DNA of 23,887 nucleotides from Armatimonadota bacterium. GTDB lineage: Bacteria; Armatimonadota; UBA5829; DTLH01. The stretch spans positions 1 to 23,887 of the forward strand of contig JBBRAE010000039.1 in NCBI GenBank assembly GCA_038207085.1, given 5' to 3'. Of the stretch, positions 3,413 through 19,531 are shown in pieces (the first letter of the stretch is position 1; every line of letters begins with the position of its first letter). The translations under genes and the position numbers were made by a program. The notes beneath the pieces were generated by a model that saw nothing but the letters and a program-made list of their open reading frames with translations, was not told where the DNA came from and ran no database searches.

Positions 3413-3446
3413 AAGCCGCCGTGGATGATTCTTCCGGCGGCTTTTT
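3413..3446 (+). terminator. Rho-independent terminator after the BON gene
   Basis: aagccgcc...ggcggctt stem followed by a T-run. Confidence 0.8.
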
Positions 3447-3474
3447 CGCATTTGGGGGACATTCGCTTATTTCG

Positions 3475-3503
3475 TTGACGTGGGGAATCTCTTTTGGTAC
3501 CAT
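3475..3503 (+). promoter_or_regulatory. Sigma70-type promoter upstream of the structured leader and GH130
   Basis: TTGACG (3475-3480), 17 bp spacer, TGn-TACCAT (3498-3503). Confidence 0.6.
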
Positions 3504-3526
3504 ATCAGGGTTAACTCTAAAGCAAA

Positions 3527-3648
3527 CTATGGATTTTCGGCAGATAGCTTTACGGTCAGCCACAGAGTATTCGAGCCGAAAATCTCTCTCGACTTTCGGG
3601 TTAAATACTCTGTGGATATACGTTAAGTCGTTGCCCGAAAGTCAATAG
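3527..3648 (+). other. Structured intergenic element: two 53-bp units in inverted orientation, each closed by a 10-bp stem (candidate ncRNA, leader or operator array)
   Basis: gattttcggc(3532-3541)/gccgaaaatc(3575-3584); gactttcggg(3591-3600)/cccgaaagtc(3634-3643); ccacagagtatt(3560-3571)/aatactctgtgg(3604-3615). Confidence 0.6.
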
Positions 3649-5317: not shown

Positions 5318-5342
5318 CGTCCGGGATTGCAAATCCCGGACG
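5318..5342. repeat. REP-like palindrome in the hdrC-hdrB spacer
   Basis: cgtccgggatt-gca-aatcccggacg, a perfect 11-bp stem without a long U-tract. Confidence 0.65.
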
Positions 5343-5364: not shown

Positions 5365-6261
5365 ATGAAATATTCCTATTTCCCTGGTTGTTCGCTGCAT
5401 TCGACGGCGAAGGAGTTTGGAGACTCGACGATGGCGGTATGTCGGGCGCTTGGCATCGAGCTTGTGGAGATTCCGGACTGGAACTGCTGCGGGGCGACCT
5501 CCGCGCACAGTCTGAACCACGAGCTTTCGATCGCGCTTCCGGCCCGCAACTTAGGCCTTGCCGAAAAGCTTGGCGCGGATGTCGTCGCACCGTGCGCGGC
5601 GTGCTACAACCGGCTGCGCTCGGCTGAGGTCGAGATGAAAAAGGGTGGGGCGCTTGCCGAGAAGATCAACGCCGAGCTTGAGTCCAAGTTCACCGGAGCG
5701 ATCTCCGTCCGCCACCTCGCTGATCCGCTTTCTTCCCCTGAGGCGCTTGAAGAGCTTGCGCGCCAGGTGAAAAAGCCGCTTTCCGGGCTGAAACTCGCCG
5801 CTTACTACGGCTGCTTGATGGTCAGGCCGCCCAAGGTGCTCGGGTTCGATGACGCGGAGGACCCGCAGTCGCTTGATAACATCGTGCGGACGCTTGGGGC
5901 TGAATCTGTTGACTGGCACTACAAAAACGAGTGCTGCGGCGCGAGTTTTTCGCTTACCCGCGTCGATATCGTCCACAAAATGACCCGCGAGGTGCTTATC
6001 CGCGCGAAGAAGTCGGGTGCTGATGCTGTTGTCTGTGCGTGTCCCCTCTGCCAGGCGAACCTTGATATGCGGCAGGGTGAGATTGAGAAGATTTACGGCG
6101 AGAAGATTGGGCTGCCCATTTTCTATGTGACTGAACTGATGGCGCTTGCGATGGATTTGCCGGGGGTGAGTGGGTGGTTCGGGAAGCATATGGTGGATGT
6201 GTCGGGGGCAGTGAGTCGCATTGGTCAGGTCAAGCATGAAGAGTCTGCGCCGGTTGGCTAG
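5365..6261 (+). CDS. hdrB: Heterodisulfide reductase subunit B
   Basis: YFPGCS, WNCCGA, PCAACY, YYGCL, ECCGA, CPLCQANLD (two CCG domains). Confidence 0.95.
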   Translation: MKYSYFPGCSLHSTAKEFGDSTMAVCRALGIELVEIPDWNCCGATSAHSLNHELSIALPARNLGLAEKLGADVVAPCAACYNRLRSAEVEMKKGGALAEKINAELESKFTGAISVRHLADPLSSPEALEELARQVKKPLSGLKLAAYYGCLMVRPPKVLGFDDAEDPQSLDNIVRTLGAESVDWHYKNECCGASFSLTRVDIVHKMTREVLIRAKKSGADAVVCACPLCQANLDMRQGEIEKIYGEKIGLPIFYVTELMALAMDLPGVSGWFGKHMVDVSGAVSRIGQVKHEESAPVG

Positions 6262-6271
6262 TTTTTCTCCT

Positions 6272-6714
6272 GAATCGCGGAGGGGCGGAAGGAATGGAAA
6301 CGCGGAATTAACGTCTTCGGCAGAGTGGGCCGGGATTTGAAGAGGTTTTCTATCAACGTGCTCTTTATCGCGAACTGGTTGCCGAAGGGCTTGACGTTGC
6401 GCGCGAAGTGGACATCGAGGTTCGCTACAAAGATCTGAGTCTTGGCAAGAAGCGCGTTGATTTTGTTGTCGAGAAGTGTATGGCGGAGATCAAGGCAAAG
6501 GCCGGTCTTGCCGATGTTGATTTTGTGCAGGCGCTATCTTATCTGAAAGCATCGGGTTTTTAGGTGGGACTGCTTCTGAACTTTGGTGGCGTGAAACTGG
6601 TCGCTAGAAGGCTTGTGAACTCCGGCGGCACGGGGCCACGTGAGGATTAGTGACAGGTTGCTGCGGTTGCGGTATCCCTTCCGCGCTTCCGTGGGTTCCG
6701 CGTCTCCGCGATTC
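6272..6714. mobile_element. Inverted-repeat-flanked GxxExxY cassette in the hdrB-hdrA spacer
   Basis: 36-bp imperfect inverted repeats 6272-6307 and 6679-6714 (29/36 identical by eye), built of CGCGGA(A/G)-like units. Confidence 0.7.
6294..6650 (+). pseudogene. GxxExxY protein (PD-(D/E)XK nuclease-like) pseudogene
   Basis: Hand translation: GPGFEEVFYQRALYREL..REVDIEVRYKD..GKKRVDFVVEKCMAEIKA..VQALSYLKASGF*VGLLLNFG; in-frame TAA at 6309 and TAG at 6561; usual N-terminal helix missing. Confidence 0.85.
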
Positions 6715-6728
6715 GGGATATTTTGCTA

Positions 6729-6745
6729 GCTAACCGCTAACAGCT
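6729..6745. repeat. Heptamer repeat arm (GCTAACn) before hdrA
   Basis: gctaacc gctaaca gct. Confidence 0.55.
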
Positions 6746-6759
6746 CTTAAAGAGGAATT

Positions 6760-8763
6760 ATGGCAAGAATCGGAGTATTTGTGTGCCACTGCGGCACGAA
6801 CATATCTAAGACGGTGGATGTTGAGCGGGCTGCTCAAGCGGCGGGGGAATTTCCCGACGTCGTCTTCAGCACGAACTATAAGTATATGTGCTCCGAACCG
6901 GGCCAGAACCTGATCAAGGAGGCCATCAGGGAGCATAAGCTGGATCGTGTTGTCGTCGCCGCCTGCTCACCCCGGCTTCATGAGCCTACTTTTCAGCGAT
7001 GCATCGCATGCGCGGGGTTGAACCCGTATCTGGTCGAGATGGCGAATATTCGGGAGCACTGCTCCTGGGTGCATGAGGACAAGGTCGAGGCGACGGAGAA
7101 GGCGATCGATATTATCGCGATGCTTACGGCCAAAGCCAAGCGCGACGAGCCACTTTTCACCAAAGAGATTCCACTTACCAAGAAGGCTATGGTCATCGGC
7201 GGCGGCGTTGCGGGGATTCGGGCGGCGCTTGATATCGCTGAGGCTGGCTATAAAGTCACTCTGGTTGAGCGGACGCCTTCTATTGGTGGGCGGATGGCCC
7301 AGTATGACAAGACTTTCCCCACGCTTGACTGCGCGGCTTGTATTCTGACCCCTATGATGGTCGACTGCGCGAGCCATCCTAATATCGATATTTGGAGCTA
7401 CTCCGAGGTCGAGCAGGTGGATGGGTTCGTCGGCAACTTCAAGGTTAGAGTCCGAAAACGCGCGAAGAGTATTAAAGAAGAGCTTTGCACGGGGTGCGGC
7501 GTCTGCTGCGAGAAGTGTGTCGTTAAGGGGCTCGATAATCCGTTTGATGAGGGGCTCGGCAAGCGGAACGCTATGTATGTGCCGTTTCCGCAGGCCGTCC
7601 CGAACGTGCCGGTGCTCGACCGGGAGAACTGCCGACAGTTCACCAAGGGCAAGTGCGGCGTCTGCCAGAAGATGTGTCCGGCTGGGGCCGTCGACTACGA
7701 TCAGGAAGATGAGATTGTGACCGAAGAGGTCGGGGCGATTGTCGTTGCGACAGGGTTCAAGACCTGGGATCACTCCAAGCTCGGCGAATATGGCTACGGC
7801 AAGTATCCAGACGTTATCTCGGGGCTGCAGTTTGAGCGGCTGATGAATGCATCGGGGCCGACCGACGGCAAGATCAAGCGCCCGAGCGATGGCAAGGTGC
7901 CGGAGTCGGTCGTGTTTCTCTCATGCATTGGTTCAAGGGACCCGGAGCACGGTCATGCCTACTGTTCCAAGGTCTGCTGCATGTATAACGCCAAGCACGC
8001 GCTGCTCTTGAAAGACAAGCTGCACGACGCCAAGGCCTATGTGTTCTATATGGACATTCGGGCCAACGGCAAGGGCTACGAGGAGTTTGTCCAGAGAACA
8101 ATAGAGGACTACGGCGCGACTTATGTTCGTGGTCGAGTCAGTCGGATATTCCCTGAGGACGGTCAGATGGTCGTGCGCGGGGCCGATACGCTTCTGGGCA
8201 AGCCGATAGAGGTGCGGGCCGATTTGGTGGTTCTGGCGACGGCGATGGAGCCGCAGGACGACGCCAAAGAGCTTGCGCGGACGCTTGGGATATCGACCGA
8301 TCAGTATAACTGGTTCTCTGAGGCGCATCCGAAGCTGAAACCCGTCGAGTGCCTGAGCGCGGGGATCTACCTTGCGGGCGCTTGCCAGTATCCCAAAGAT
8401 ATTCCCGACACCGTCGCGCAGGCTTCGGGCGCGGCATCCAAGGTCGCGGGGCTTTTTGCCAAGGAGTGCCTGACATCAGAGCCGATGATCGCCTATATCA
8501 AGGATGACTCCTGCGTCGGCTGCGGGCTGTGCGCCGGGGTGTGTCCGTTCAGCGCAATCGAGCTTGTGGAGATCGTCGACCGGGCAAAATCGACCCGGGA
8601 AAACCAGGTGATGCGCACCGTCGCCAAGGTCAACGAAGGACTATGCCACGGCTGCGGGACCTGTGCCGCAGCGTGCCGGTCGCTTTCTGCCAAGCTTCGA
8701 GGCTTCGAGGACAGTCAGATCCTCGCTGAGATCGAGGCGCTTGCGAATATTAAGATAGGATAG
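6760..8763 (+). CDS. hdrA: Heterodisulfide reductase subunit A (FAD, electron-bifurcating)
   Basis: GVFVCHCG, YMCSEPGQ, AACSP, NIREHCSWVH, IGGGVAG, KTFPTLDC, YCSKVCC, inserted and C-terminal ferredoxin motifs. Confidence 0.97.
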   Translation: MARIGVFVCHCGTNISKTVDVERAAQAAGEFPDVVFSTNYKYMCSEPGQNLIKEAIREHKLDRVVVAACSPRLHEPTFQRCIACAGLNPYLVEMANIREHCSWVHEDKVEATEKAIDIIAMLTAKAKRDEPLFTKEIPLTKKAMVIGGGVAGIRAALDIAEAGYKVTLVERTPSIGGRMAQYDKTFPTLDCAACILTPMMVDCASHPNIDIWSYSEVEQVDGFVGNFKVRVRKRAKSIKEELCTGCGVCCEKCVVKGLDNPFDEGLGKRNAMYVPFPQAVPNVPVLDRENCRQFTKGKCGVCQKMCPAGAVDYDQEDEIVTEEVGAIVVATGFKTWDHSKLGEYGYGKYPDVISGLQFERLMNASGPTDGKIKRPSDGKVPESVVFLSCIGSRDPEHGHAYCSKVCCMYNAKHALLLKDKLHDAKAYVFYMDIRANGKGYEEFVQRTIEDYGATYVRGRVSRIFPEDGQMVVRGADTLLGKPIEVRADLVVLATAMEPQDDAKELARTLGISTDQYNWFSEAHPKLKPVECLSAGIYLAGACQYPKDIPDTVAQASGAASKVAGLFAKECLTSEPMIAYIKDDSCVGCGLCAGVCPFSAIELVEIVDRAKSTRENQVMRTVAKVNEGLCHGCGTCAAACRSLSAKLRGFEDSQILAEIEALANIKIG

Positions 8764-8823
8764 CCGTTAGCAGTTAGCTATTAGCTTTTAGCTGATGGCT
8801 GACGGCTGATAGCTGACAGCTAA
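8762..8823. repeat. Tandem-inverted heptamer repeat (AGCnnTT)x4 / (GCTGAYn)x4
   Basis: agccgtt agcagtt agctatt agctttt a gctgatg gctgacg gctgata gctgaca gctaa fills the hdrA-mvhD spacer. Confidence 0.88.
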
Positions 8824-8824
8824 T

Positions 8825-9289
8825 ATGATCGAAGAGACAACTGAACAGACTAATACCGAGACCTGGAAGCCCACTATCCTTGGGATACTCTGCAACTGGT
8901 GCAGCTACGCCGGGGCCGACCTTGCGGGGAGCTCGCGGATGAAGCATCCCGCGAACATGAGGATCGTGCGCGTGCCGTGTTCGGGGCGCGTGAACCCATT
9001 GTTCATCCTCAAAGGGTTCCAGATGGGGTTCGACGGCGTGATGGTGCTTGGGTGCCATCCCGGTGACTGCCACTATGCCAAGGGTAACTATTTTGCCCGG
9101 CGTCGGATTATGCTCATTCGTGAGCTTTTGCAGTCGATGGGTATCGAGCCTGAGCGGTTTCACTTTGAGTGGGTATCGGCATCAGAAGGCGCGCGTTTCG
9201 CCGAAGTGGTAACCGAGATGACCGCGAACATCGAGAAGATCGGGCCGTTCTGCGGGGTTGATTGTTCCAGAACGCCTTCTGCGTTCTGA
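8825..9289 (+). CDS. mvhD: MvhD/FlxD-type [2Fe-2S] subunit
   Basis: LCNWCSYAGADLAG, RVPCSGRV, GCHPGDCHY, WVSASEG. Confidence 0.94.
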   Translation: MIEETTEQTNTETWKPTILGILCNWCSYAGADLAGSSRMKHPANMRIVRVPCSGRVNPLFILKGFQMGFDGVMVLGCHPGDCHYAKGNYFARRRIMLIRELLQSMGIEPERFHFEWVSASEGARFAEVVTEMTANIEKIGPFCGVDCSRTPSAF

Positions 9290-9290
9290 A

Positions 9291-9380
9291 AGCAGTTAGC
9301 AGTTAGCTGTTAGCCTTTAGCAACCGTGTGTTGGGCGATGGGCGAAAGAGCTAACAGCTAATAGCTAAAGGCTAATAGCT
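9291..9380. repeat. Tandem-inverted heptamer repeat with a 28-bp spacer
   Basis: agcagtt agcagtt agctgtt agccttt agc -28 nt- gctaaca gctaata gctaaag gctaata gct. Confidence 0.9.
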
Positions 9381-9383
9381 ATT

Positions 9384-10319
9384 ATGATAGATAAACAGAT
9401 ACAACAGAAAGCAAAAGAGCTGCTCGAATCGGGTGATGTGACTATGGTCATCGGATGGGGCGCTGGTAGTGCTCCGTTCAAGACTACGCCAGTGTTCGTT
9501 GAGAAGCCCGAGGACGCCCAGAAGCTCGTGTGGAACCCGGCTTGCACCAATAACCTCGCGGTCTATCTGCCTCAGGTGGCAAAGAAGGCCAAGGTGGCGA
9601 TTGTTGCCAAGCCGTGCGACAGCCGGTCCATCGTTACTCTGATTCAGGAGAATCAGGTTCCTAGAGAGAACCTGGTCATCATCGGGCTGCCCTGCTCGGG
9701 GATCGTCGACGATGCGGCGCTTCGCAAGGCTGATATCAAGCTCGCCGAAGTTCAGTCGCTTGAATGGGAAGGCGACTCGGTCGCGGTCACTACGACCGGT
9801 GGCAAGGTTAGCGTGCCGATCTCTGATGCCGTCCGCGAAGGGTGCAAGAGCTGCGATACTCGGGTGCCGGTTGTTAGCGATGTGACGTTTGGGGAGGCTC
9901 CTGCGGCCAGTCCATCAACGGTTGAGCCGATGGATGGTTCGTTTGAAGAGCGCAGGGCTTATTGGGCTGAGCAGTTTGATAGGTGTATTCGCTGCTATGC
10001 CTGTCGGCAGGCGTGTCCGGGGTGCTACTGCGCGAAGTGCTTCGCCGACCGCAACGACGTGAAGTGGACGAACAAAAAGGCCGTCGCGGGTGAGTCGTGG
10101 ATGTTCCAGATGGGCCGCGCGATGCACCTCGCCGGTCGATGCGTCGGCTGCGGCGAGTGTGAGCGAGCCTGCCCGATGGAGATTCCGCTGATGAAGCTCA
10201 ACCGAGAGGTTCAGCGGCACGTCACGGAGCTATTCGACTTTACGCCGGGGATGGACATTGATGTGTCGCCGGTCTTGGGCGACTTTGATCCGGGTGATCC
10301 TGACCCTAATGGGCACTAG
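9384..10319 (+). CDS. flxC: 4Fe-4S ferredoxin protein, FlxC-like (FdhB/FrhB-related)
   Basis: KPCDSRS, IGLPCSG, RCIRCYACRQACPGCYCAKC, HLAGRCVGCGECERACP; position in the hdrCBA-flxDCBA gene order. Confidence 0.82.
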   Translation: MIDKQIQQKAKELLESGDVTMVIGWGAGSAPFKTTPVFVEKPEDAQKLVWNPACTNNLAVYLPQVAKKAKVAIVAKPCDSRSIVTLIQENQVPRENLVIIGLPCSGIVDDAALRKADIKLAEVQSLEWEGDSVAVTTTGGKVSVPISDAVREGCKSCDTRVPVVSDVTFGEAPAASPSTVEPMDGSFEERRAYWAEQFDRCIRCYACRQACPGCYCAKCFADRNDVKWTNKKAVAGESWMFQMGRAMHLAGRCVGCGECERACPMEIPLMKLNREVQRHVTELFDFTPGMDIDVSPVLGDFDPGDPDPNGH

Positions 10320-10322
10320 GGT

Positions 10323-10357
10323 AGTGCAGGGTTCAGAGTGAAGAGTGCAGAGTGGGA
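10323..10357. repeat. Heptamer repeat arm (AGTGCAG family) before the inserted ORF
   Basis: agtgcag ggttcag agtgaag agtgcag agtggga. Confidence 0.6.
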
Positions 10358-10397
10358 CTGGCAAGGGTTGGTATATCTGCGTGGAGCGACATAGCAT

Positions 10398-10889
10398 ATG
10401 TGCAGCATTCCTGACATTGGGTTGGTCGAAGCTAAGTGGCGGTTAGGTGTGCTGGAGCCAAAGGCTATGAGCGACATTGCAACCGTGTTGCTCATGCATG
10501 GCTGCGATCTTCCAGAAGTGATGGATGTGGCCGCAGGTCGCATCGACGAGAACTGCTATTGGTTCCGGTTCGGAGATATTTTGACGGCCATTCTGGGAAG
10601 AGAAACAGTAACAGGCAGCCGAGCCGGTTGGCTGGTAGCTCGGCACCTTGCTTCCGAGATGCTGATGGGGAATGTGGAACCGGAGCAAGGTATCAAAGAT
10701 ATATTGTCATTGACAGAGCTTATGGATGGCGGGTATTCAAGCGTTCCTGCGTGGATCCTCGGGTTCTACAACTTGGCAGATGACTGGGAGACTATATTCT
10801 GGAACAAACCGGATGATTACCGTGCCGAGATTCTGCACGAGTGTCGGCAGTTGCTTGATCTGCCCGAACCGGCGGACGTTCAAGAATAG
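10398..10889 (+). CDS. Hypothetical acidic helical protein inserted between flxC and flxB
   Basis: 163-aa ORF with ggag RBS; no Fe-S motifs; visibly more A/T-ending codons than flanking genes; followed by a gctgaca gctaa repeat arm. Confidence 0.7.
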   Translation: MCSIPDIGLVEAKWRLGVLEPKAMSDIATVLLMHGCDLPEVMDVAAGRIDENCYWFRFGDILTAILGRETVTGSRAGWLVARHLASEMLMGNVEPEQGIKDILSLTELMDGGYSSVPAWILGFYNLADDWETIFWNKPDDYRAEILHECRQLLDLPEPADVQE

Positions 10890-10908
10890 CTGACAGCTAA
10901 GGGACATT

Positions 10909-11931
10909 ATGGCTGATAAAGTAATCGCAAAATCTAATCTTCGCTCCTGGCTTGCTAGCCTTGTGGCGAGTTACAATTTGATCGCGCCTGTGGCGGGGGA
11001 GTCGGGGCCTTCTCGGTGGAAGGATATCGACGGCGACTCTGATGTCGACATTACGTCTGATCGGATGATGATGGCGATCAAGGAGTATCTGCTGCCGCAG
11101 TCTGAGACGCTTTTTACGGTGAGCGGCAAGAAGGGCGAGGAGACCGTCGTCGACCCGATCAAGACGCCGGAGCGCGGGACGCTCGCGATGGGGCTGCACC
11201 TCTGCGACGTGCGGGGGATATCGGTGCTTGACGATGTGTATCTGCATCAGGGGCCGTTTCAGGACCCGTACTACGCCGCGCGCAGGAATAGCCTTGCCGT
11301 GATGGCTACGGTGTGCTCGGATCCCCGCTGGAGCTGCTTCTGCACCACAATGGGTGATCTGAACGACTGGGCGAAGGCCGCGGATGTGCTCGTGACCGAC
11401 CTCGACGGCAAGCTCTACGTCGCGCCGATCTCTGAGACTGGTGAGAAGCTTGTGCATGGGGATTTCTTTGCTGAGCCGTCGGCTGAAGATGTCGCCAAGA
11501 AAAATGAGGTCTGGGAGAATCTGCTTGCGCTTCCCAAACAGTCGTTTGCGGGGATGGACACGTCAAAGATCGTCGACTGGGACGACCCAATCTGGGCGGA
11601 GATTGCGCAAAAGTGCCTGGGCTGCGGGATTTGCAGCTATATGTGTCCGAGCTGCTCGTGCTTTGATATCCAGGACGAGACCAAGGGGCACACCGTCGAG
11701 CGCTACAGGTGCCGAGATACCTGTCAGAGCTGTGACTTCACCCACATGGGGCACGGTCACAACCCGAGGCCCGAAAAGACCATGCGCGCGCGCCAGAGGG
11801 TGATGCACAAGTTCAGCTATCAGGTCACGCAATACGGCAAGAACGGCTGCAGCGGCTGCGGCAGGTGCGTCGAGAGCTGCCCGGTCAACATAGACCTGCG
11901 AGAGGTGCTGAGCCGAATCGCTGGCAAATAA
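10909..11931 (+). CDS. flxB: 4Fe-4S dicluster protein, FlxB/AsrA-like
   Basis: IKEYLLPQSE, LCDVRG, DPYY, SCFC, KCLGCGICSYMCPSCSCF, RQRVMHKF, GCSGCGRCVESCP. Confidence 0.88.
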   Translation: MADKVIAKSNLRSWLASLVASYNLIAPVAGESGPSRWKDIDGDSDVDITSDRMMMAIKEYLLPQSETLFTVSGKKGEETVVDPIKTPERGTLAMGLHLCDVRGISVLDDVYLHQGPFQDPYYAARRNSLAVMATVCSDPRWSCFCTTMGDLNDWAKAADVLVTDLDGKLYVAPISETGEKLVHGDFFAEPSAEDVAKKNEVWENLLALPKQSFAGMDTSKIVDWDDPIWAEIAQKCLGCGICSYMCPSCSCFDIQDETKGHTVERYRCRDTCQSCDFTHMGHGHNPRPEKTMRARQRVMHKFSYQVTQYGKNGCSGCGRCVESCPVNIDLREVLSRIAGK

Positions 11932-12060
11932 GTGCGTTTGAGCTTCGGGACGAAAAAACTGTCCCCAAGCATATTGTAAGCATACTGTATCAAAATTGGA
12001 TGAGGCACGGGGTAGGGCATACCAGCCCCCAACCCCTAACTCCCATCCCCTGGAAAAGAT

Positions 12061-12915
12061 ATGTGCATAGATTCTAAATCAGCAAATGTAATGGCAGCGA
12101 ACCCCTACACGCCGCTTTTGGCGGTTGTGGAGAAGGTGATCGAGGAGACTTGGGATACCAAGACGTTTCGGGTGGTGTTCAAGGACGAGGCGATCCGGGA
12201 GAGCTTCACCTACCAGCCGGGGCAGTTTCAGGAAGTCTCGGTCTTTGGCGTAGGTGAGTGTACCTTCTGTCTGACCTCCTCGCCTACGAACAAGGGTTAT
12301 ATCGAGTTTTCAGTGAAGAAGGTTGGGGTCGTCACTTCGGCGCTTCACGAGCTCTCCGAAGGGGCGATTGTGGGCATCCGCGCGCCGTTTGGCAACTGTT
12401 TCCCATACGAGCAGTGGAAGGGCAAGAACCTGCTCTTTATCGGAGGCGGAATCGGGATGGCGCCGATGCGCTCGATCCTGAACTACTGCCTGGATAACAG
12501 GGCCGACTATGGGGACATATCGACCGTTTATGGCGCACGAACACCCGGCGACCTCTGTTTCACCTACGAGTTTGACCAGTGGAAGAAGAACGCGAACCTG
12601 TATCTCACGGTCGATGCCGGCGACGATACTTGGAAAGACCGCGTCGGGCACGTTCCTGGGTATCTTCTTGAGCTCGACCCCAAGCCAGAGAACACGATCG
12701 CAGTCACCTGCGGGCCGCCTATTATGATCAAGTTCGCGCTGCAGAACCTGAAACAGCTCGGGTTTGCCGACGAGCAGATCTATACCACGCTTGAGATGAA
12801 GATGAAGTGCGGCGTCGGCAAGTGTGGGCGCTGCAACATCGGCGCCAAGTTCGTCTGCATCGATGGGCCGGTGTTCTCGTTTGCCGATATCACCGAACTT
12901 CCTCCGGAGTTCTAA
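12061..12915 (+). CDS. flxA: FAD/NAD(P)-binding oxidoreductase, FlxA/AsrB-like
   Basis: PGQF, IGGGIGMAP, YGARTPGDL, CGPPIMIK, MKCGVGKCGRC, VCIDGPVF. Confidence 0.9.
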   Translation: MCIDSKSANVMAANPYTPLLAVVEKVIEETWDTKTFRVVFKDEAIRESFTYQPGQFQEVSVFGVGECTFCLTSSPTNKGYIEFSVKKVGVVTSALHELSEGAIVGIRAPFGNCFPYEQWKGKNLLFIGGGIGMAPMRSILNYCLDNRADYGDISTVYGARTPGDLCFTYEFDQWKKNANLYLTVDAGDDTWKDRVGHVPGYLLELDPKPENTIAVTCGPPIMIKFALQNLKQLGFADEQIYTTLEMKMKCGVGKCGRCNIGAKFVCIDGPVFSFADITELPPEF

Positions 12916-18839: not shown

Positions 18840-19075
18840 ATGCGTGGGGTCTCAGACCGCGCGGGATTCAGCCGAATCTTGCGATAGCGACTCGACCGAT
18901 GTTGCCGTCCGCTTGTGTCACGGCGTCGGCATCCCGGAGTATTGTAACCATTTCACGGCTCAATACCCAGCCTGCGAGTTTCCCCTGTCAACGCTCCCCC
19001 GCCGCCCTCACGGACGACAGGACATGACTCGTGGTCAGTGTGCTCGCTACCCCTTGCCGGTTTTGATCGGCGCTG
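18840..19075 (-). ncRNA. Group II intron 5' fragment (domain I), truncated
   Basis: Minus strand reads (ca)gcgccgatcaaaaccggcaagg..gtagcgagc..cgagtcatg..ccgtgaggg..agcgttgacagggg..gcaggctgggtattgagccgtgaaa..gggatgccgacgccgt..gcggacggcaacatc..cgcaag..cccgcgcggtctgagacccc; no RT ORF or domain V seen. Confidence 0.75.
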
Positions 19076-19162
19076 CGACATCAGTGCTGCAAACACTTCC
19101 ACGTCATCACGCCGTTCAGTGAGCTACTTGTGACATCCAACACCTGCCAACTTACCCTGCGT

Positions 19163-19241
19163 TAGCCTGCAATATTCACGAGGAGCGTGAATAATGCTTT
19201 GCTAGCGAGAGCTTTATTCGCTTCACGAATAAAGCGGGTTA
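19163..19241. repeat. 79-bp double-hairpin MITE/REP-like element, copy 2
   Basis: 63/79 identical to 14235-14313, same orientation; stems conserved and loops changed. Confidence 0.85.
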
Positions 19242-19531
19242 GGCGGTACTACGTGGTAAATGTGGAGGATTTGCCTTGGCTTGATGGACGGGACGAATGG
19301 AAGGGACTGAAGACCATCGCGTGTGTAGAGAGCACGAGACCACCTGCGAGGACGCCTGCAGAGTCAGACGGGATCACGGGCCGGAGAACTTCGCAACGAT
19401 CAGACAGATCGCACACAACCTGCTGAATAGAGCTGGAGATAACAGAAGCATAAGACGCAAAATTAACCAGTGCTGCTGGGAAGACGATTTCCTGGCTTCA
19501 GTCGTCGCCGGATTTTAGTGCGTAAGCCCTG
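19242..19531 (+). mobile_element. ISAs1-family transposase 3' remnant with right end
   Basis: RRYYV..EWKGLKTIACVESTR, then a deletion/frameshift to EDACRVRRDHGPENFATIRQIAHNLL..SIRRK..WEDDFLASVV; ends tgcgtaagccctg, an ISAs1-type terminus. Confidence 0.8.

Follow-up and report, generated by a model that had tools for sequence, protein, structure and literature searches.

Tandem-repeat arms between the genes of an Armatimonadota hdr-flx operon: probable remnants of hairpin elements with small genes of their own

Why do the spacers of a conserved redox operon carry short tandem repeats that face one another, in one place around a gene and in another around nothing? The question is raised by a 23,887-nucleotide stretch of Armatimonadota DNA (the window; contig C39 of an 83-contig, 3.35-Mb assembly with completeness rated 100%). 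The operon order hdrC-hdrB-hdrA-mvhD-flxC-flxB-flxA is supported by Pfam; the flx letters follow the labels of a first-pass annotation of this DNA and the Desulfovibrio naming. That annotation read the repeat arrays, here called arms, as empty and occupied states of an integrase-free cassette-capture system. Here we describe the arms in the window, in the rest of the source genome and in related genomes. On balance, the arms are in our view probably parts of selfish hairpin elements, present as full, empty, half and chimeric copies; these would resemble intervening sequences (IVSs) and REP sequences, enclose their own small gene and be copied to sites behind stop codons.

The two small genes in question encode a four-helix-bundle protein (PF05635) and a GxxExxY protein (PD-(D/E)XK, PF13366). 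Matched arms (cut-off, inverted-repeat (IR) score 14) enclose the four-helix-bundle gene at 59 of 66 evaluable loci in relatives, taken from the 68 best-scoring of a larger match set, with dozens of different 7-8-nt units. The GxxExxY gene lies in matched arms of 8-10-nt units at 27 of 30 loci. At four further four-helix-bundle loci and one further GxxExxY locus, the partner arm is farther off, with no open reading frame (ORF) between. This anatomy and the link of gene to arm are observed directly, as is the co-variation of arm and protein at different loci: arm similarity increases with protein identity, nearest-neighbour proteins share arm words at 0.172 compared with 0.036 after permutation (maximum 0.097 in 2000) in a test that kinship inflates, and members of the GGTGTTG clade occur at loci whose flanks are not homologous. 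A sense ORF ends where the element begins in 48 of 59 cases (control, 7/59). The four-helix-bundle protein of locus L044 matches PDB 2GSC (E 6.5e-27), described in the accessible text of PMC10053308 as a homologue of Avd, while PF13366 is listed, in the part consulted of PMC3424549, as of unknown function.

The hdr-flx operons of relatives were compared at 193 junctions in 37 operons, comprising the window's and those of 36/37 relatives with a clear flxC match; a metagenome scan yielded a single locus (L067, family-level identity), kept outside the spacer analysis. As the first-pass annotation had anticipated, spacer content varies widely between relatives, with lengths from an overlap to 2687 nt. 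The 142 spacer ORFs scanned include HicA/HicB, GIY-YIG, PIN, HEPN with nucleotidyltransferase, DUF3108-like and glycoside hydrolase genes, and many have no family. Complementary ends are found at six of the 68 junctions of at least 300 nt, and all six carry PF05635 (L043, L044, L050, L060) or PF13366 (window, L062), the two kinds of gene that had been predicted as enclosed. None of the other 62 large inserts lies in matched arms: nine have unmatched left and right arms, 12 a single arm and 41 none. Arms are found at 21/62 of these cargo junctions and at 32/83 spacers of 30-299 nt (p=0.6; p values in this comparison overstate, as the genomes are kin), and seven operons hold cargo without any detected arm. 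Four genomes have a loaded GGTGTTG-family copy at the flxC-flxB junction (L043, L044, L050 and L060), while L042 has an empty one and L066 a half one. Loaded, empty and half copies are thus directly observed at one orthologous junction, and to this extent the notion of empty and occupied states stands. Capture of arbitrary small cargo is not supported: unrelated small genes accumulate at these junctions whether arms are present or not, which makes a general gene-capture system unlikely. The best reading is that element remnants mark permissive junctions.

Other spacer genes recur in their own right. A DUF3108-like gene, secreted-looking and of ~270-300 aa, is conserved before mvhD in the hdrA-mvhD spacers of most family-f2 relatives (L036-L050, L052, L058, L060 and L063-L065), often with variable small membrane genes ahead. 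At least 12 of the 36 operons have HicA/HicB toxin-antitoxin genes in their hdrB-hdrA, hdrC-hdrB or flxB-flxA spacers, some of them at junctions without a detected arm.

Across the source genome, period-7 arrays number 204 compared with 27 in the shuffled genome, and arrays of period 5, 8 and 11 are at chance level. Heptamer arms of five families total 243 at a profile score of at least 21 (3 when shuffled), 237 of them intergenic. At the score of at least 19 applied for pairing, 51 matched pairs are found within 900 nt (~2 being self-overlap artefacts), along with 151 unpaired arms. That all of the latter are true half-sites is rejected, 42 of them keeping a decayed partner (IR at least 11) compared with 7 in an outward control. 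Matched pairs are mostly gene-less (49/51), and the sole recognisable genes inside them are the genome's two PF05635 genes: one is frameshifted and occupies the atpG-atpD junction (gene names assigned from sequence) in AGCT arms like those of the window's empty hairpins, and the other is intact inside AGTYGCT arms. Other loops carry nested REP-like hairpins. One AGCT-family sub-variant, TTAGC, has 87 overlapping matches in this genome and 0-4 in each of 40 relatives, and lineage-restricted expansion is likewise a direct observation.

Placement is equally marked. Co-directional genes flank 42 of 49 orientable pairs (background, 1097/1715), gene calls coming from our own hexamer model with some error expected in starts and small genes. 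For the 145 evaluable unpaired arms, the outer gene is the closer one (median distance 8 vs 128 nt), and of the 69 lone arms on the stop side 62 start within -27 to +8 nt of the stop, so that placement at the stops of co-directional genes is seen directly. Many right arms finish 4-8 nt before an ATG without an obvious Shine-Dalgarno sequence. Among genes searched for in this genome, DUF559 was not found, the three reverse transcriptase matches are all on other contigs, and the three PF00589 matches, which may be IntI or Xer, are likewise off the window contig. The two PF01797 (RAYT) matches lie elsewhere with no catalogued arm near either, and the single PF01541 (GIY-YIG) match is in a 636-aa frame.

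Two further repeat observations belong here. An inner repeat, GGACTGGCRAG (partner CTCGCCAGTCC), occurs once in the window (Table 1) and at ~13 other sites, directly inside left arms of several families. In the G000 genome, 574 of 1848 spacers longer than 35 nt hold another repeat of at least four copies, with odds ~2x where an arm is present.

Within the window (Table 1), at least four arm families and two unrelated palindrome families are present, and a single repeat system spanning the operon is accordingly rejected. As first described, the hdrA-mvhD arms abut with nothing between, forming a 26-bp loop-less RNA hairpin (-34.5 kcal/mol, z -6.8; antisense -21.3), and arms of the same family surround a short loop of about 27 nt in mvhD-flxC, in a hairpin that folds on both strands (z -3.8 sense, -5.6 antisense). 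The CCCCTAA-type run of flxB-flxA is also present, and arms do lie flush with stops and finish near the next start. Elsewhere the first description needs amending. The GxxExxY pseudogene and the GCTAAC arm of hdrB-hdrA are both there, but the pseudogene has its own 8-9-nt arms, which form a duplex of -74.8 kcal/mol, and the GCTAAC arm is separate from them (-18.0 kcal/mol with the GxxExxY left arm, no pairing). The nearest intact relative of this copy, at L156, has 74% identity and a matching arm family and unit. In flxC-flxB the AGTGCAG arm, the orphan ORF (orfX) and the GCTGACA arm are all present, but the two arms belong to different families and are unpaired (-13.6).

The statement that the hdrA-mvhD arms pair only through G:U is overstated, the stem having 20 Watson-Crick and six G:U pairs, and the argument from sense-strand wobble fails genome-wide (G:U 147 vs A:C 149). 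Sense folding is stabler in 20 and less stable in 22 of the 42 co-directional pairs, and 46 four-helix-bundle elements have G:U 132 vs A:C 140; with no bias in either set, sense-strand G:U excess as a sign of RNA-level selection is rejected. The local wobble has another candidate source. Of 19 AGCT-family pairs, this hairpin alone combines a left arm made up purely of TTAGC with a right arm that is mostly TCAGC. Because TTAGC is nearly private to this genome while the TCAGC sub-variant is common to it and G003, a genome of another genus, the hairpin is likely a chimera in which a recent insertion has joined an older one, and the wobble pairs would be the record of this.

Table 1. Repeat elements and genes of the hdr-flx operon in the window
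Feature	Position	Strand	Remarks
hdrC-hdrB palindrome, separate REP-like family, core GGATTGCAAATCC	5318..5342	.	z -3.3; 41 core matches in genome; no heptamer array
hdrB, host gene	5365..6261	+	PF02754
GxxExxY-element left arm, 8-9-nt GCGGAA-type units, directly 3' of hdrB stop	6268..6307	+	
GxxExxY (PD-(D/E)XK, PF13366) pseudogene	6294..6650	+	N-terminus gone; TAA 6309, TAG 6561
GxxExxY-element right arm, TTCCGCG-type units	6679..6718	+	
Lone right arm, AGCT heptamer family (GCTAAC arm)	6725..6745	+	Precedes hdrA ribosome-binding site
hdrA, host gene	6760..8763	+	Pfam
Empty AGCT-family hairpin, TTAGC-type left and TCAGC-type right arm	8761..8821	+	Takes in hdrA stop TAG
mvhD/flxD, host gene	8825..9289	+	PF02662
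Empty AGCT-family (TTAGC) hairpin	9291..9380	+	Left arm 9291-9321, ~27-nt loop, right arm to 9380
flxC, host gene	9384..10319	+	PF04432 and Fe-S domains
Lone left arm, AGTKCAG heptamer family	10323..10354	+	
Left half of recurrent inner repeat GGACTGGCRAG	10354..10370	+	Behind arms of several families genome-wide
orfX, orphan 163-aa gene	10398..10889	+	Low codon adaptation; no Pfam family
Short lone right arm, AGCT family, TCAGC sub-variant (GCTGACA)	10885..10898	+	Overlaps orfX stop
flxB, host gene	10909..11931	+	PF17179
Small hairpin, other repeated family (TCGGGAC...GTCCC)	11943..11969	.	
GGGGTTA/CCCCTAA heptamer family	12009..12050	+	Decayed left remnant 12009-12017, right arm 12023-12050
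flxA, host gene	12091..12915	+	PF00175, PF00970, PF10418

Outside the operon, positions 3421-3640 of the window are a copy of a dispersed intergenic repeat (roughly 11 copies), and a group II intron D1-D4 fragment (Rfam RF02005) lies at 18847-19065 on the minus strand, beside an IS-like (insertion sequence-like) remnant at ~19130-19520. The Rfam scan of the window found no rRNA.

The orphan orfX belongs to a real but sparse protein family, with one relative of 85% identity and 17 distant ones; it was found in two of the class's 53 genomes and in 17 of the 401 sampled from the phylum. Pfam gives no family for 17 members bar one weak match, and Atlas matches are unnamed clusters. Among the 52 other genomes of the class its only relative is in G018, and each of the two is bracketed by unmatched arms. 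Heptamer arrays stand upstream at three of 15 orfX-family loci (L268, L269, L271), and at 11-12 of the 15 no period-7 array is found within 330 nt up- or downstream. Two attC-like sites follow the relative in L271 (minus strand); in a different class, orfX-family genes may be carried as integron cassettes. The G018 argB-argD array (L269:1250-3465, L287:1-2620) contains two near-identical GxxExxY elements, a third 3' fragment, the orfX relative, two membrane orphans and a pseudogene, with a TTTCGGGAAAAGGGTTTCCCGA-like hairpin before most orphans; argF-argG of the same genome holds a four-helix-bundle element. The argB-argD array is the best candidate for true cassette accumulation. These data fit a junction that collects cassette-type genes, without showing that the arms do the collecting.

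Whether arms mark gene turnover was addressed by synteny with G003, of which 1.78 of about 3.1 Mb was compared. Adjacency is kept at 18/22 pair junctions, and pairs therefore sit in stable operon junctions; it is kept at 10/17 decayed pairs, 14/43 true lone arms, 127/440 arm-free spacers of at least 30 nt and 201/324 shorter ones. Lone arms break synteny no more than the arm-free spacers (14/43 vs 127/440 kept, p=0.6), and their role as rearrangement hot spots is rejected. Several junctions that bear 80-365-nt inserts in the source genome have spacers of 1-14 nt in G003, and the array itself is also present in G003 at none of 18 pair junctions and one of 22 lone junctions. The outer gene is conserved more often than the inner one, but not significantly (26 vs 19). 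Small low-adaptation genes are not enriched beside arms (11/145 vs 325/2528), nor are isolated ones (3/21 vs 86/413).

The proposed element consists of a four-helix-bundle or GxxExxY gene of its own between inverted arms built from 7-10-nt tandem units, and each protein is predicted to recognise its own arm unit. By analogy with Ssn and RAYT proteins and their hairpins, the protein would bind its repeats on single-stranded nucleic acid, and the element would be copied to sites directly behind stop codons. Gene-less copies may be moved in trans, as MITEs (miniature inverted-repeat transposable elements) or REPs are. Tolerance of the insert would rest on the stem, which may loop the insert out of the transcript or be cut by RNase III as in 23S rRNA IVSs, while a sense-oriented gene within the insert could relay translation. 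Arms that abut the conserved genes would result from deletions and from recurrent insertion into one site. HicAB, PIN and HEPN genes and orphans such as orfX likely enter independently or replace an element's interior, in which case unmatched arms would be left. A bolder version has a transposase- and integrase-free mobile family target the stops of co-transcribed genes, with an Avd-like pentamer or a PD-(D/E)XK nuclease reading the tandem code and recombination between arms swapping integron-type cassettes to build arrays like that of G018; we regard this version as unlikely.

Several observations speak against the self-carrying element that we prefer. The unit drifts in place at one orthologous locus (L131, L134, L135, L136) while both arms stay complementary, which suggests that arms also evolve without moving. 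The co-variation test suffers from the kinship already mentioned, and for three of the five heptamer families the assembly contains only unloaded copies. A plain insertion at a stop does not account for an inner repeat that lies within arms of several families. The assembled contigs of the source sample, from one study, show no joint at an arm, and no insertion event was caught, the G003 spacers being too diverged for target-site duplications to be read. In G018 the orfX relative, 3' of argB, has a heptamer array as its left arm and a right arm of GCTGA type; the orphan after it lies between GxxExxY-type arms with an IR score of 13.2, just under the cut-off. Among large inserts in the hdr-flx operons, unmatched left and right brackets round other cargo (9/62) slightly exceed the 6.5 expected from within-genome permutation (p=0.024). 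To our knowledge, finally, the four-helix-bundle protein has no known catalytic activity.

Some of these points favour the first-pass model, in which recombination at the arms would let an integrase-free cassette system take up and exchange small genes of any kind within highly expressed operons. Under that model, unmatched brackets, such as the excess just given and those round orfX and its only relative in the class, would arise when different elements recombine with each other. The spacers of 0-2687 nt with HicAB, PIN, HEPN, GIY-YIG and orphan genes, the orphan array among GxxExxY arms in the G018 arg operon, the attC-like sites in L271, and the more frequent occurrence of true lone arms than of pairs at broken junctions (adjacency kept at 14/43 vs 28/39, decayed pairs included) also suit it. 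The model nonetheless seems improbable to us given the absence of other inserts from matched arms, the 41/62 that are armless and the seven operons in which cargo occurs and arms were not detected; synteny is no more often broken at lone arms than at spacers lacking arms, foreign small genes are not enriched at arms, and most orfX-family loci have no nearby array.

Domestication as regulatory sites, whether for RNA-binding proteins or as RNase III stems that tune translation or mRNA stability, a role already suggested for the Beggiatoaceae TAACTGA repeats and the paired sites of Geobacter metallireducens, would account for pairs in conserved operon junctions, for right arms close to start codons, and for lone arms, whose number roughly equals or exceeds that of paired arms and whose adjoining genes are well adapted (the outer gene has the higher codon adaptation in 89 vs 54 cases). 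We find it doubtful, as sense strands show no folding bias, units vary by lineage with sites seldom shared with G003, and dozens of units go with one particular small-gene clade each. Neutral slippage, with the inverted partner formed by template switching and the small genes as bystanders, is very unlikely. Units are indeed degenerate, variable in copy number and drifting in place, and heptamer repeats are over-represented in many bacteria according to the accessible part of PMC4692102. Slippage leaves unexplained, however, the 59/66 and 27/30 genes in matched arms, the match of unit and clade at different loci, and the placement within a few bases of stops, and it is largely refuted by the co-variation of gene and arm.

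The closest working models are IVSs and the Ssn-SRM system. In the 23S rRNA of Coxiella and Leptospira, IVSs carry an S23p/PF05635 ORF in the loop of a terminal inverted repeat (PMC4990558, in the text available to us). The elements described here resemble them in the four-helix-bundle ORF, which in IVSs lies in the loop of a ~28-bp terminal inverted repeat, and, as far as the available text goes, in sporadic distribution. The stem round a PF05635 ORF is represented by loaded forms elsewhere in the genome and in relatives, no such ORF being in the window. Unlike IVSs, they lie in mRNA operon junctions behind stops rather than in 23S rRNA, have arms of tandem 7-8-mers and abundant empty or half copies, and include a second cargo family, GxxExxY. 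The Ssn nucleases, with SRM/NTS hairpins, are encoded by a small gene flanked by its own repeats (PMC11893778, in the part consulted). In what could be consulted on them, Ssn-SRM and REP/RAYT share with the present elements a small gene with its own hairpin repeats, many gene-less copies, protein-repeat co-evolution and the lack of a DDE transposase. Those systems use GIY-YIG or HUH proteins, whereas a four-helix bundle (PF05635) or PD-(D/E)XK protein (PF13366) is found here, and the arms here are tandem arrays that pair with a distant partner rather than self-contained palindromes, such as the GTAG/CGTC-ended ones of REP/RAYT.

Similar arrays have been reported before. Geobacter metallireducens has paired tandem hepta- and octanucleotide sites (PMC2700814), Xanthomonas has GGGAATC inverted pairs (PMC4692102), and in Beggiatoaceae TAACTGA repeats precede start codons (PMC4679880). 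In the consulted parts of these papers, the repeats match ours in having about four tandem 7-8-nt units, in being intergenic with stops in all three frames, and in forming convergent pairs at variable distance or single arrays before a start codon; the same parts read them as regulator-binding sites or G-quadruplexes and describe no link to four-helix-bundle or GxxExxY genes. We found no published description of the gene-arm link in a search outside which lay subscription journals and supplement files that may bear on it.

In integron cassette arrays, small genes of varying content, among them toxin-antitoxin pairs and orphans, all face the same way. The loci described here share this pattern, and one orfX relative has attC-like sites; unlike integrons, they have no integrase at the locus, and their cargo is not flanked by one repeated site. 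The attC left-half motif (a single motif, which divergent sites could escape) gave no match in the 193 junctions or the genome and two in L271. As in MITEs, the inverted repeats are terminal, multicopy and non-coding in nearly all pairs. The loaded copies have no transposase.

New in the present analysis are the orthologous series of loaded, empty and half copies, the contingency of cargo on matched arms, the synteny test and the chimera account of the wobble. General cassette capture is the part of the first-pass reading that the data mostly do not bear out, with residual support for capture of other genes in the unmatched brackets and the G018 array. If the interpretation as self-carrying hairpin elements is true, it joins three things: the unexplained heptamer repeats of many bacteria, S23p/Avd-like genes far from rRNA and diversity-generating retroelements, and the uncharacterised GxxExxY nucleases. 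The many natural pairs of protein and unit make a direct test of binding or cleavage simple, as for Ssn, and an element that lands behind the stops of conserved operons would represent a new targeting strategy.

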